Origin: Harriotta raleighana
Lineage: Eukaryota
Assembly: GCA_050575255.1 (NCBI GenBank)
Contig: JBNZDD010013732.1
Location: forward strand, 5,984,777 to 6,048,776
Direction of reading: 5' to 3'
DNA: 64,000 nucleotides
The stretch's first letter is position 1, and each line of letters begins with the position of its first letter. Below, in pieces: positions 18,601-24,600 of the stretch. Position numbers and translations under genes: made by a program. Under the pieces are notes generated by a model. That model saw nothing but the letters and a program-made list of their open reading frames with translations, searched no databases and was not told the DNA's origin.

Positions 18601-21600
18601 ATGGTCTTAGATTTCACTGGCTGTAGCTGGCATTATTTCAAATAATTATAACTAACCACAGAGCAATTTGCTGCTTTCTGCCTTCCATCAAACTTGGTGA
18701 CCAGCAACACACAGTCTCCAGTATGGTGATGCAGTATCTTGTTCTGGCAGTGCCTGTTGTTGGGAACAGTGTGGCATGTGTTAAACATTGTAATACCAGC
18801 GGGTGTTGGTACAATTGAGCAACCTGTAGTAAAGATGAATTTCCTGATGGTGTCGCTGTTATACCATGTTGTGGAAACCATAAGCTCACACGATCATAAG
18901 ATCATAGGATTTAATAACTCCCATCACCAATTTGATCTCGTCCCTTCCAGAATACCCATTCTGGCATCTTCCCATCGCATAACCACGGCAGTAATATGTG
19001 TGTGAGACTGCCTCAGCTTTATGTCCTATTTGGAATAGTTTAGGCACCTAGTCGGTATCTGACATGAGAAAGAAATCAATGAAATTGTTTGGGGATCAGC
19101 AGTTGAATTAAAAACGTGCATCGTACTTTGACAATATCTGATCCTCCACTTTCAAGTCTATTATGACAAGTTCCTACTGTTTTCGTAAACAGAATATACT
19201 GTAAAGTGAATGCTTCAGTGGATAAGATAAAGTTTGTGCCTTGGAATGTTGGGTGTGGAATGTTGTGTAATTATGAAAATTTGTGTAAAGTTTGGGCTTA
19301 TAATGGATTTAAAAATAACACAAACAGAAAAGTGCATAAGAAAAACAAATATTGTAATTTGATTTTCTTGATCATATTTGTTTTTATTTCCAGCCAACTA
19401 GTACCTGGACATCAGAGCAAACTGGTGTTCTAGCTCCTCTACAGCTCTCCTCATCTGAAAAAATACAGCAGGAGGGTAATCTTGGTAAGCTTTGGGGAGT
19501 GGAGGGGCCTATGAGAAAGGAGAAACTAAGATTAGGATACTGTCCCTGTCCTTTGCCTTCTTGTTTTGGAATCCTCAAAGCCTGAAATTGGTATAGTGAG
19601 GGACATCATTGTTGAGGAATGAAACACATATGGCACCTGGTTACAAGAACAACTTCTTAAAGGCAGTCCCATTACCAGCTCCCTCTGCTCCATCCCACCA
19701 GAGTCTTCAAACACAACTTTGGTTGCTTCTTAGAGTGTGGGTAAGTGGCCGATTGGCCTTTAAAAAGCTGATCGGCTTTCACCAATGTTGCTCATGAATC
19801 AAAGACAGGGAAAGCTTTGACAAACCAGGAAGACCTTCAATTTTAATCTTAAAGCCACCTGTGACTGTCTTTTTGTTTGGTCGAAGCACAAATGTGAATG
19901 TGTGGTTACCAGAAAAAGTGTTTTACAACCACTTACGAATAACTTTTTTTAAAAAGTTACTTTTTAATTAAAAAATATCATTGTGCATTTCAGATGACCA
20001 TGGACCGAACGTTGATGACCTCAGCGTGTCACCTAAAGAAGCATTAGGTACTTGTCTTTGTCATTTACCCTTTCAACTTGTTCTATTTTAGTGTATCATT
20101 GCATATTACTTTAATGACTCCCCATCACTCAGAGCATACAGTTCAAGATCCTGGTCCTCACCTTCAAAGCCCTTCATGGCCTTGTTCCTCCTTACCTCGG
20201 TCGCCTTCCAATGCCCAACCAACCTGTCCACTCTCTTGGCAGGTAGCTATTCAGTCTCTCTGCCCCCACCTCAGCTCTGGATCTCTATCCCGCAGTCCCA
20301 ACACCTCGGCCCCTCCTTTGCCTCCTTCAACAACAACAACAAAATTACATTTATAGAGCGCCTTTCACGTTGGTAGAACGTCCCAAAGTGCTGAACAATT
20401 AGGTCAGGATCCAAACGGGAGTGGTGGGGGGGGTGGTCGGAGTAGGGGGAAGCGGAAGGAGAGAAGGGGAAGAGTTAGGAGGGGATGGGCAGGCTGATAA
20501 TGAGACAGCAGATCAAAGAGATAGGTGGAGCAAGACTGTGAATGGCCTTGAAGGTGAGGATAAGAATCTTGAATTCGATCCTCTGGGGGATGGTGAGCCA
20601 GTGGAGATGGGCCAGGGTTGGAGTGATGTGGTCGCGGAGCCTTTTGCGTGAGAGTACACGAGTTGCAGAGTTCTGAATAATCTGCATCTTCTGAAGGGAG
20701 GAGCTGGGAAGGCCAACGAGGAGAGAGTTCCCATAATCGAGCCTAGATGTAATGACCAATCTCAACCTCATCATCGGTCACCCTTCTCCCCTACCCTCCC
20801 TGCCCTCCACTCCCTCTTGATTCCAACCACCAACTTGGTTGCGGCTCCATAACTGACCTAAAAGCCACTAAGAAATGTGATTTGTTGTTGGTGTAAATGT
20901 ACCAAACTCTTTAATTTTGTGACACACTCGCAGAAATCTACAACTCGAGTGCTCAAGCATTGAATGATGGAACACTGAAATAACTGAATGTTCTCCATTC
21001 AGAAAATGCTATAAAAACTGTGATTGTGTGTGATTTACAGGGTTTGTTTTGATTAAATATATTGACTTTAAACTTTAAAAAAAATCCAGTGTTCAACACT
21101 GAAATCTGCAGTGAAACCTGATTGTCCAGGTACTGCAATTGATAAAGATTGGGTTTAAACCAGCAAATTCGCAAAACAAATGCTGTGTTGTATAGGACTT
21201 CACAGTGCATCATTTTAAAAGTTAGTTTAATTTTTAATTTGTAGTTTTAAATCATTATTTTTCCTCTGTTTAGAGCATAAGGCAAGTCATAAATAAAAAA
21301 GCAACAATTTTACTGGCTGATACTCAGAAATTCTCATTTGTTTTTCCCTATTTTAGCTGACTCCATGAGTTTAGTTTCTGCAGGAGTCACACCTAACAAA
21401 GGTGACTTTTACGATGTTTATGAATTGCTATTGGCTGCCTCAATTTTCTGAGTCAAAGTGAACAGATGAACATGACCACAATTGGGGAGAACTGCTGTTA
21501 ACCACCACAAAGATTAAATGCTTTAATTGAACTGTGTTTCCTGCTTTTGCACCTAGTTTGCACTGCTTTTCGTTGTTATTTGTAAACCTTTTGAACTAAC

Positions 21601-24600
21601 TGATGGTTTATTTTTAACTCTTTCCAGCCTGTAATTAATTTCTGACTTTATTAATTTCCATCATTGCTTGTGACTATTTGGCAGATGGATTTGCATGTTT
21701 CTTTCTCTGCTTATGTGTGCATGTTACGTATATTTCTCTTTTTCTCTTTGTCTCTCTATATAGTATCTGTTTACCTGTATACATTTTTCTTTGGTTTCTC
21801 TCTCTCAGTTGGTCACTATGTGTATATGAAAGTTCTTTATCAGGACTCTGAGCTCACAGTCCAGGCTGACACTCCAGTGCAGTGCTGGGACTTTGGCAGC
21901 AATCAAGGAGGTATGGTCCTTCAGATGAGATGCAAAGCCAAGGTCCCATCTGTCTGTTTGGGTGGACATTAAAGATTCCATGGCAATACTCAAAAAGGGA
22001 AAAGAGTCTTTCCGGGTGTCCTGGCTAACAATCTCTCACATTGGGCATTCACTCCGTGACTGCTTGTGGGATGTTGCTATGTTCAAATTGGCTGTGTTTC
22101 GGCTTACAAAATGTACAGTCACTGCACAGGGAATCTTTGCACACCTCCAGTCCACATCAGGCTACCTGACTCCCCTCCTTCTGTGTATGCTCCCTGCACC
22201 TCTCATCCAGCCTGACTCTTGTGTGTTTCTCTTTTTCTATTCTGTCTCTGTCTTGTCAATTTTGAATAGCCATGTTGTAGCATTCTTTCATGTTTTGAAT
22301 TTGTGTCCTTAATTCGTTAATGACCTGACAGAAAAGCCTCACCCATTTTACACAGCAAAATTGGAAAGGGTTCTTGAAAGGACTCAACTGCTGCAATTGT
22401 AAGCTGAGCTTCCTTTCAAAAGTGTCTGGAAATTGGTTAACTTATTTTTATGACCCTGAATTCCCCCAAAACTAACAATTTAATTTATTATGATTTCATT
22501 TGAATGTTTAATTTTTTAACTGCTGAATCCTCAAATTACCTTGGTATTTTCGTGGCTATGAATAAACACACTGCTATAACTGCTTGTATTTTAGCATGCC
22601 TATTTTAGTAGCCTATATTGGAATATTACATGTAATATAACTGTTGCAATTGCATGGAAATATTCTAGCATAATTTTGTTTAATTTCAATCAAACAAAAT
22701 TTTGGTATAGTTTTGGATAATCTTGTGAATTCCAAAGCTTTCCTGAAGTGATATTTTGCTGGAGACATATGTTGATTTCACTGTCTGTTAACAGATCTCA
22801 AGTCATCTCTTATAACAAAAAAGAAGCCTTCAGCAGCTAAGAAATCGGTAAGTACTAAAGGCTTTATTTGTAAATAGAAATAACTTGGGAATTTATGTCA
22901 CTGTTTTGATGAAAACAGCTGCATTATTTGGATGTTTACACATATGTAAGATTAGTTCCTGATTATAGTGAAGAATAGAACTGTATTCGATATTCTTTGG
23001 TTCCAGTGACTAGTATTCAATACTGGCTGGTTGTTAATTAATTTAGATTAAAGTAATTCTTAATAGTGAAATTCCTTCTAATACAGCAAAAATCCATTGG
23101 AACATTGTGTGTATATATTATTTATATATTATAACATATATCTATTGTTTTTCAAATGCTTCTTCTAAACTTTTTTGTTTAAAAAATGCATCTTTGTTTC
23201 CTGAGGATAAATGAGATAATGAAGTACTTTTCTTTCCGAATACTAATTGGAAATGTTATCAGTACATTACCTTCATATCATTCTATTTGTGAAGTCCAGT
23301 AGGATATCGGTTAGAGCATTCGCCTCACAAGCAAGAGGACCCGGATTTGATTCCTGGGCAGAGCAAAACCTTAGGAAACTTTACTTACTTTACGCACTTC
23401 TGTTTAATTATCGGTAAGCAGGAACCTGGTTGTTGGTCGATTGGCAGATTGGTTTCTGGGATAATAATCCATTAAATGAATAATTATATGGACACTCAAT
23501 CCACAACGGTTTGTGGGACACTGCTGTGTGCAGTTGGCTGCTGCGTTTTGCCCACAATATATACTGTCAATTCACTTTACAATATATTCTGTGAAGTGCT
23601 TGGAGACATCTCAATGATGGGCACTATATCAAATGCAAGTATTATTAGTATGTCAAACTGCTGCGATGATAATATATCATGGGACTTGAACGTCTATGAT
23701 TACTCCAAATCTGCAAACTATTTGGGAATGATTGCATTTGCATTGAAAGCCCGAATTGACCTATCTGCAAAATCTGAAATGTAGACTTTCATTTGCCAAA
23801 AGTCTGGGAAAGTCAGCTGGTTACAGCCAGCGGTAACTGAATTCTGCATTTACTCTGGCTCTTTTTAAACAGCTGGGTGGTAAGAAGGGTGGCTTGGGAG
23901 CGCAGAAAGTAGCCAGCCACAGCTTCAATGAGATTGAAAAACAGGCTCAGGCTGTCGACCGAATTAAAGAACAAGAGCTGAGCAACAAGAAGAAATCTGA
24001 GAAAGATGAATCCATGTAAGTACAATGACATTTAGCGATTATGTTTTCTTTAAAACATGTGTGTCTTAACTTTCAGGGGATAGGTTTGAGTTTGGCAGAG
24101 CAATGAGATATACATAGTACCAAGAAATCAAATTGATGGACTATGATACATTTTGCTGATCTTGTACATCGCTGCTTCACTCCAGATTATTTAACAGTGG
24201 TCCTCGAATCAAGGGTTAAGACTGTTAAATCCTTCCTAGCCTCCTTCAAGTCCTGCTTTAAGACCCACCAACTGTGCCATCGATCACCCTCCTTCCCTTC
24301 ACTCTCCCCGATCCTGCTCTCAGCTCGGGTTCGAAACTCTTAAACGCTCCAGCAAATTGGGATGTCCTCCCGATGTGAAAGGCGCTCTACAAATGAAATT
24401 TTGTTGTTGATGTTGTATTGCCTTTACCACACACAGAGTGTCATCACTCCGACTTGCATACCAGGACCTGGAAATCCAGAGAAAGAAAGAGAATGAGAAA
24501 ATAAATCACTTGGGAGGGAAAAAGAAGGAACAGGCCGAGCGATTGGGCATGGGTTTCGGCAGCAGATCGTAAGTAACTACAACAACAATAAAATTACACT

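Follow-up and report, generated by a model that had tools for sequence, protein, structure and literature searches.

The closest described relative of the exon studied here is an alternative exon of human ARFGAP2, 42 nt in length, which studies of myotonic dystrophy and of ESRP-driven tumours use as a splicing marker (PMC6788855, PMC6942047, PMC11814191); a forward primer published for it has its end in the S-P-K-A-S-L codons that directly precede the exon (PMC6788855). Its PSI falls from 53-63 to 9-16 on ESRP knock-down (PMC5703972), it appears among the named MBNL targets (PMC10602967), and it was part of an assay of Mbnl1-null diaphragm (PMC6942047). In the table of PMC6788855 its "function of splice" cell is empty, and the available passages of the other literature state no function for it. 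A second point of reference is the linker of yeast Glo3, in which lysine clusters bind β'-COP; deletion of residues 220-230, which immediately precede the first cluster, left this binding unchanged (PMC9960064).

We analyzed a 64,000-nt stretch of the Harriotta raleighana genome (the window; positions are counted from its first letter, and all features described lie on the + strand) that contains ARFGAP3, a gene of vesicle traffic at the Golgi. The coding region extends over 6624..31861 and is organized as 17 exons encoding 532 residues with a 45-nt cassette, or as 16 exons encoding 517 residues without it, with an open frame and one terminal stop in both forms. The window protein is identical to Callorhinchus ARFGAP3 (P0009) at 501 of 532 aligned positions (94%), and an N-terminal ArfGap zinc finger of the Glo3-type ArfGAPs is found in P0009 (PF01412, E = 2.6e-30). 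In a tree of 36 sequences and 514 columns, from which the insert columns were left out, the window gene and bony-vertebrate ARFGAP3 form one clade (SH-aLRT/UFBoot 99.5/100). PACSIN2 lies immediately upstream on the same strand, with an FCH exon 33 kb upstream that scores 91 bits against PACSIN2, 84 against PACSIN1 and 66 against PACSIN3; human ARFGAP3 presumably has the same upstream neighbour, on the same strand. Tree and neighbour bear out the assignment of the gene to ARFGAP3 in the initial annotation. Several chondrichthyan RefSeq/UniProt records are labelled ARFGAP2, yet group with ARFGAP3. Queries with ARFGAP3 and coelacanth ARFGAP2 closely match the Harriotta genome at the window locus only, and tblastn of C13313, a gapped 193-kb contig that carries a PACSIN3-like gene and that is perhaps not the orthologous locus, gives no ArfGAP2/3 match.

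The cassette, exon 8, occupies 21357..21401 and encodes residues 206-220 of the long isoform, adding 15 residues in frame (phase 1-1) between two constitutive exons. The upstream exon 7 (19994..20047) ends in an S-P-K-E-A-L segment with a phase 1 donor and is entered by a joint at 19483>19993 (cut +1) in three of four runs; the downstream exon 9 (22795..22847) encodes the KKKP lysine cluster, residues 229-232, and is left by a joint at 22846>23872 (cut +1), likewise in three of four. A polypyrimidine tract and TAG acceptor (21337..21356) precede the cassette, with pyrimidines at 15 of the 17 nt of 21337-21353 and TTTTAG abutting the exon. The GTGACT donor (21402..21407) is not weak, with a simple weight matrix score of 8.0 where the other 15 donors of the gene range from 4.6 to 12.9. 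Exon bounds, tract, donor, phase and open frame are all as the initial annotation described them. Its view that the immediate flanks are repeat-free also holds: 21200-21800 matches the genome once, in a search skipping very common words, and repeat-derived contigs pile up off these flanks, at 20012-20901 and 21792-22147.

Transcript evidence comes from contigs of four of the 12 runs listed, all from one study of a related species (organism A), presumed to be RNA and unlabelled as to tissue. Contig 15 of run X3 contains both inclusion joints, 20043>21353 (cut +4) and 21399>22793 (cut +2), and its 152 letters are exactly what inclusion predicts, against 107 on skipping; the downstream inclusion joint also appears in run X2. 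Contig 27 of run X4 fits skipping only, as its observed end at 19412 is the end predicted for skipping, with 19460 predicted for inclusion; this joint is deduced by length arithmetic and is absent among the joints listed. Run X1 does not cover exons 6-8, and 21436-21791 is uncovered in all four runs examined. The junctions 20047>21357 and 21401>22795, for which the initial annotation had pointed to muscle, heart and brain RNA, are both found in a related species, in runs that carry no tissue labels. A Logan-derived protein, P0014, reads through the insert and is identical to the window long isoform at 262 of 266 positions.

Annotated proteins tell the same story. Among 72 chondrichthyan proteins, the insert is present in 47 and absent from 24, with one aberrant, and in all 12 elasmobranch isoform pairs selected on length the difference is precisely these 15 residues; pairs from turtle (15 residues), bichir (14) and bowfin (12) differ as well. 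Contigs and isoform pairs together establish both splice forms in relatives, as expected of the true cassette first proposed. Several other AG..GT open segments are found in ARFGAP3 introns, and 21357-21401 could in principle be one more chance pseudo-exon, a reading refuted by the splice joints, by a peptide that hardly varies and by the annotation of many species, and to which we give a negligible probability. On conservation and splice joints the cassette is clearly beyond chance, and we consider it virtually certain to be a real cassette exon. It is not a new prediction, because RefSeq/UniProt models of relatives already contain it.

How freely the exon is skipped is a separate matter. Inclusion forms outnumber skipping forms in the protein set above, and five of the six named Callorhinchus records that span the region include the insert (the sixth looks mis-spliced), which would fit an exon that cartilaginous fishes include constitutively for the most part, skipping being a minor or noisy event and the peptide being conserved for a normal structural role. 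This is improbable given that the annotations of 12 elasmobranchs, turtle, bichir and bowfin contain skipping isoforms, and that the X4 skipping contig and the X3 inclusion contig are each single and unbranched, which points to near-complete switching between samples.

We find that the cassette peptide has a mean identity of 97% across 14 elasmobranchs, so that the conservation among chondrichthyans on which its initial proposal depended is present. The same comparison gives 41% for exon 6, 80% for exon 7, 73% for exon 9 and 94% for the GAP-domain exons 2 and 3. The ARFGAP3 insert is also found in coelacanth, bichir, bowfin, amphibians, turtles, alligator and lizard. It was seen in none of 36 bird and none of 16 marsupial proteins sampled, and therefore appears dispensable there.

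ARFGAP2 isoform pairs from platypus (14 residues), wheatear, painted turtle and shad (15 residues) differ at the same position. Comparison of 14 ARFGAP3 with 11 ARFGAP2 inserts gives a score of 9.7, against a null of -5.9 ± 2.3 that reaches this value in 0 of 2000 column shuffles; only one of 440 control 15-mers from the neighbouring linker scores as high. Residues common to both paralogues are an opening D-S-M-x-L, a small residue, a G and a terminal basic residue. The ARFGAP2 junction residues have G-initial codons (A/D/E, then E/D/G), which fits phase 1-1 on a protein-level reading. As judged from these aligned peptides, the ARFGAP3 and ARFGAP2 cassettes are homologous, and since the ARFGAP2 cassette sits at the same position, the exon very probably predates the ARFGAP2/3 duplication, in agreement with the similar ARFGAP2 exon and pre-duplication origin that the initial annotation had suggested.

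The competing view, that the two cassettes arose independently in the same intron, draws on the shortness of the peptides and on amphioxus, in which two sets of Branchiostoma ArfGAP2-like isoforms (XP_078663054-62 and XP_019638021-25) carry an optional in-frame segment of 18-19 residues at this position, with an exon structure inferred from proteins alone. This segment has no sequence likeness to the vertebrate insert (p = 0.69-0.87), and the intron may therefore be a hotspot of exon gain. Shared position, inferred phase, a length of 14-15 residues and the D-S-M-x-L start, together with the shuffle result, nevertheless make separate origins of the two vertebrate cassettes quite improbable, and we retain common descent.

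Regulation is less firmly placed. The motifs first noted downstream of the cassette lie where they were reported: two TGCATG, candidate RBFOX sites, at 21692..21723 (starts 21692 and 21718, or +291 and +317 from the donor), with a third at 22651; one ACTAAC at 21595..21600, a candidate QKI site that is equally a branch-point consensus, followed after 28 nt by a pyrimidine tract and a CAG that ends at 21627; and eight YGCY, candidate MBNL sites, seven of them TGCT, at 21426..21711, within 350 nt downstream. The stretch 21628-21669, downstream of the ACTAAC, could be a pseudo-exon. Against 3000 dinucleotide shuffles of +7..+350, a window picked after the motifs had been seen, TGCATG alone is enriched, and modestly so (two copies, p = 0.024); neither the one ACTAAY (p = 0.23) nor the eight YGCY (p = 0.48) stand out. 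Against sliding windows of the gene body the YGCY count gives p of about 0.03, and of the 16 donor flanks in the gene that of the cassette is the richest in TGCATG, YGCY and TGCT. A scan of the same +7..+350 interval with a UGG-rich motif set, which we take to be ESRP-type, finds no match where 0.7 are expected.

This last count is relevant because the epithelial factor ESRP, left out of account in the initial annotation, is the regulator best documented for the human ARFGAP2 exon. The chimaera cassette could, like the human paralogous exon, be under an epithelial programme of the ESRP type, with the RBFOX, QKI and MBNL motifs incidental or secondary: the human exon drops by 38-65 PSI points on ESRP depletion (PMC6788855), rises from PSI 5 to 41 on ESRP overexpression (PMC5703972), and has a PSI correlated with ESRP1 in pituitary tumours (PMC11814191). 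The zebrafish arfgap2 exon, however, is scored as not ESRP-regulated (PMC5703972), which together with the lack of an ESRP-type motif in the 350 nt downstream of the chimaera exon indicates that regulators differ between lineages. With two TGCATG downstream as a further argument against it, we regard an ESRP programme in Harriotta as rather unlikely. That the cassette is tissue-regulated in some manner is probable; muscle and neural control by RBFOX, MBNL and QKI through the candidate sites is plausible, at slightly less than even odds.

The cassette region maps to a disordered linker in the structure model (pLDDT under 50; model mean 56.9), where the sole local feature is a low-confidence helix at 201-209, and the insert ends 8 residues before the KKK cluster. 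In the mechanism that we propose, RBFOX, with help from MBNL and QKI, would likely switch the exon on by tissue; inclusion would insert 15 residues with the D-S-M-x-L motif common to both paralogues, and these would place the basic coat-binding stretch on a longer tether to the GAP domain and could add a short binding or phosphorylation motif. The KKKP cluster may correspond to the first lysine cluster of Glo3. The cassette might alter coatomer, SNARE or cargo binding, which we put forward tentatively; the dispensability of Glo3 residues 220-230 for β'-COP binding speaks against a direct effect on that contact. Our overall reading, with a probability of about 70%, is of an ancestral ARFGAP2/3 exon, tissue-switched likely by RBFOX with MBNL and QKI help, and predicted to tune the engagement of COPI coat or cargo by the linker.

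A more far-reaching synthesis, which we consider speculative and on balance unlikely, would see one splicing switch in the coat-binding linker of Glo3-type ArfGAPs kept since the chordate ancestor and inherited by both duplicates, with bird and therian ARFGAP3 losing the exon and ARFGAP2 keeping it, and with cartilaginous fishes losing ARFGAP2 and freezing ARFGAP3; the D-S-M-x-L peptide would then act as a tissue-specific regulator of COPI uncoating not described before, the one whose splicing goes wrong in myotonic dystrophy and ESRP-dependent tumours.

The homologous exon in ARFGAP3 dates the splicing switch to before the gene duplication, and it is a clear example of both duplicates retaining an alternative exon that later seems to have been lost unevenly; the residues kept by both paralogues make a targeted functional test straightforward. 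What appears to be new is the ARFGAP2/3 paralogy of the exon, the exon itself and its isoforms being known from RefSeq/UniProt, and because the exon is already in databases, what is gained has evolutionary and practical value and is not a new kind of system. A literature search below full-text level found no description of the present ARFGAP3 cassette or of its paralogy with that of ARFGAP2, and the readable supplementary files of PMC8187152 and PMC5082313 have no ARFGAP2/3 rows.

Compared with known systems, the ARFGAP3 cassette recalls by analogy the BoCCS linker of Glo3 and ArfGAP2/3, as it lies in a disordered linker directly before a lysine cluster and GAQKV motif; the available passages of PMC9960064 mention no optional segment in yeast Glo3 and call the β'-COP contact of mammalian ArfGAP2/3 unproven. 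The peptide is identical or near-identical to that in RefSeq/UniProt ARFGAP3 of Callorhinchus milii (XP_042191187.1, V9KA49) and of sharks and rays, for which inclusion and skipping isoforms are already annotated (e.g. XP_041071716.1 / XP_041071717.1), in automatic records without described regulation, function or link to ARFGAP2. The nearest studied counterparts are the 42-nt ARFGAP2 exon of human and mouse (HsaEX0005323 and MmuEX0005709, termed "exon 8" or "exon 6"), alternatively spliced like the cassette described here (PMC5703972, PMC6788855), and the 45-nt zebrafish arfgap2 exon DreEX0014121, which has the same position and a homologous peptide (PMC5703972). Like the cassette, the ARFGAP2 exon lies between an S-P-K segment and the KKKP exon, is eighth by the ARFGAP3 count and encodes 14-15 residues. 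Unlike it, the Harriotta exon is not followed by an ESRP-type motif within 350 nt, belongs to a paralogue in which sampled birds and marsupials lack the insert, and sits in an ARFGAP3 gene whose cassette is near-invariant among chondrichthyans.

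The candidate exon at 21357-21401 (+) is the eighth of 17 coding exons in our ARFGAP3 model, which extends from 6624 to 31861. As the initial annotation had described, it comprises 45 nt in phase 1-1 and adds 15 residues in frame, with a TAG acceptor preceded by a pyrimidine tract (15 of 17 pyrimidines) and a GTGACT donor. The reading frame is open both with the cassette (532 residues) and without it (517 residues), and the window protein is identical to Callorhinchus ARFGAP3 at 501 of 532 positions. Elsewhere in the model, the exon 12 donor is of the GC-AG type (CAG/GCAAGT, 27566-27572); use of an AG at 21326-21327, 29 nt 5' of the cassette acceptor, was not observed and would yield a 74-nt, frame-shifting exon.

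Transcript evidence comes from contigs, presumed to derive from RNA, of four runs (X1-X4, of 12 listed), all from a single study of a related organism, with X1 uninformative. In X3, both inclusion joints, with GT..AG ends, lie on one 1338-nt contig with the spacing of exact inclusion, and X2 contains the joint of the cassette to exon 9. A 3506-nt contig in X4 spans exon 10 to exon 6 with a length compatible only with skipping; the skipping joint itself is deduced from this length, the contig end being predicted at 19412 and observed at 19412. A Logan-derived protein is continuous across the insert and identical to the long form at 262 of 266 positions. Among 72 scored chondrichthyan proteins, 47 carry the segment, 24 lack it and one is aberrant (excluding four records without the region, two that also skip exon 7 and an unrelated 40-residue record), and 12 of 12 elasmobranch isoform pairs, selected by length, differ by precisely the 15 cassette residues. 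These findings establish that the cassette is real and optional (probability ≈0.97), upholding the original proposal of a cassette exon, and that it is already contained in RefSeq/UniProt models of relatives. Shark and ray records also include forms shortened by about 11, 20 and 31 residues and a 9-residue extension in Chiloscyllium, which point to more alternative splicing elsewhere in the gene.

The cassette is conserved in chondrichthyans, with a mean identity to the window of 97% across 14 elasmobranchs. The same measure gives 41% for exon 6, 80% for exon 7, 73% for exon 9 and 94% for the GAP-domain exons 2 and 3. Homologous ARFGAP3 inserts are found in coelacanth, bichir, bowfin, arowana, eels and tarpon and, among tetrapods, in frogs, newt, caecilian, turtles, alligator and a lizard. 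At annotation level the insert is found in 0 of 36 bird proteins (35 scorable; 15 listed of 266 main-cluster members) and 0 of 16 marsupial proteins, and inclusion forms may sit in other protein clusters; the searches yielded no complete ARFGAP3 from a placental mammal, and a search biased to insert-bearing proteins returned bird ARFGAP3 all insert-less and bird ARFGAP2 insert-bearing.

In a maximum-likelihood analysis of 36 proteins that omitted the insert columns, the window protein and seven other chondrichthyan proteins group with bony-vertebrate ARFGAP3 (support 99.5/100), separate from ARFGAP2 (100/100), in agreement with the gene assignment made at the outset. Three of these, from Heterodontus, Heptranchias and Pristis, bear the RefSeq name ARFGAP2, which on this placement looks wrong. 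The same strand carries, 33 kb upstream, a PACSIN exon nearest to PACSIN2; human ARFGAP3 is flanked by PACSIN2 as well. Every chondrichthyan protein in the tree sits with ARFGAP3, whole-genome searches detected no ARFGAP2 locus in Harriotta raleighana, and ARFGAP2 may have been lost in cartilaginous fishes. A repeat-rich 193-kb contig of this genome (C13313; loci L020 and L037-L040) places a PACSIN3-like gene beside a septin-like gene, with no ArfGAP2/3 match found on it. The window also holds a FAM180-family exon (59624-59971, +; PF15173, E = 7.7e-40), a coding-like open frame of 170 residues with no Pfam match upstream of ARFGAP3 on the opposite strand (1668-2180, -), and, judged by eye, an apparent duplication of part of the 3' region at ~32330-32900 some 1.6 kb downstream (~34020-34300).

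The motif positions first listed downstream of the cassette, including TGCATG at 21692 and 21718, were confirmed. With TGCATG, ACTAAY and YGCY as commonly defined, 3000 dinucleotide shuffles of the 344 nt downstream, a region picked after the fact, leave the TGCATG pair as the sole motif standing out (p = 0.024), with no enrichment of ACTAAY (p = 0.23) or YGCY (p = 0.48). Relative to the gene body, YGCY is high in this flank (p about 0.03), which also tops the 16 ARFGAP3 donor flanks in TGCATG, YGCY and TGCT counts. RBFOX is the best local candidate regulator because of the two downstream TGCATG, and MBNL and QKI are possible ones. Control by ESRP, the rival suggested by the paralogous ARFGAP2 exon, is less likely; the downstream flank of the cassette has no local ESRP-type motifs. 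Within 21595-21675, the ACTAAC at 21595 matches a branch point perfectly and is followed, 28 nt on, by a pyrimidine tract and a CAG ending at 21627. Together with a weak GTGACT at 21670, these elements outline a pseudo-exon of 42 nt that contains an in-frame stop and is possibly a decoy or poison exon.

Cassette residues 206-220 fall within a linker for which disorder is predicted (pLDDT <50), with a weak predicted helix (201-209) crossing the exon junction, and end 8 residues before KKKP (229) and 28 before QKV (249). Inclusion would insert 15 residues into this linker ahead of KKKP and might alter its reach or partners in including tissues. Passages of PMC9960064 describe beta'-COP binding by lysine clusters of the corresponding yeast Glo3 linker and an influence of mammalian ArfGAP2/3 basic residues on localisation and function; the non-catalytic part of ArfGAP2 is described as coatomer-binding and unresolved in the coat structure (PMC5482573, in part). 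A direct effect of the cassette on beta'-COP is disfavored, as Glo3 residues preceding the first lysine cluster are dispensable in the same passages of PMC9960064.

In ARFGAP2, isoform pairs from platypus, wheatear, painted turtle and shad show a 14-15-residue difference where ARFGAP3 has its cassette, and the ARFGAP2 insert is also found in coelacanth, lungfish, paddlefish and a rodent. A D-S-M-x-L-like motif opens the inserts of both paralogues, and alignment of 14 ARFGAP3 with 11 ARFGAP2 inserts scores 9.7, compared to -5.9 ± 2.3 for shuffles (0 of 2000 as high) and 1 of 440 as high for neighboring linker pieces. This homologous cassette at the same position argues that the exon very probably predates the ARFGAP2/ARFGAP3 duplication, in line with the counterpart and dating suggested in the initial annotation. 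Two amphioxus record sets carry an optional segment of 18-19 residues at this position but with no detectable sequence likeness to the vertebrate inserts, so a chordate origin is possible; Branchiostoma proteins P0356, P0362 and P0365 have a second optional segment, acidic and 15 residues long, further downstream.

A record-level literature search found neither the ARFGAP3 exon nor the ARFGAP2/3 exon paralogy described in print, although VastDB or some supplements might hold such a description. The human ARFGAP2 exon is given in an excerpt of PMC6788855 as 42 nt at chr11:47194261-47194302 (hg19), with a forward primer terminating in the codons immediately 5' of the insert position. In extracts of PMC5703972, human and mouse 42-nt and zebrafish 45-nt ARFGAP2 exons form one cluster, with no ARFGAP3 or amphioxus member there; the human exon is scored as ESRP-enhanced and the zebrafish exon as not regulated, and the mouse label "silenced" conflicts with that source's own mouse values, which are lower in the knock-out. 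Portions of PMC10602967, PMC6942047, PMC10589096, PMC11814191 and bioRxiv 728881 list an ARFGAP2 exon, numbered e8 or exon 6, among MBNL, DM1 or ESRP events, and the numbering suggests that all denote the 42-nt exon. The ARFGAP2 paralogue of the cassette is a published splicing marker.
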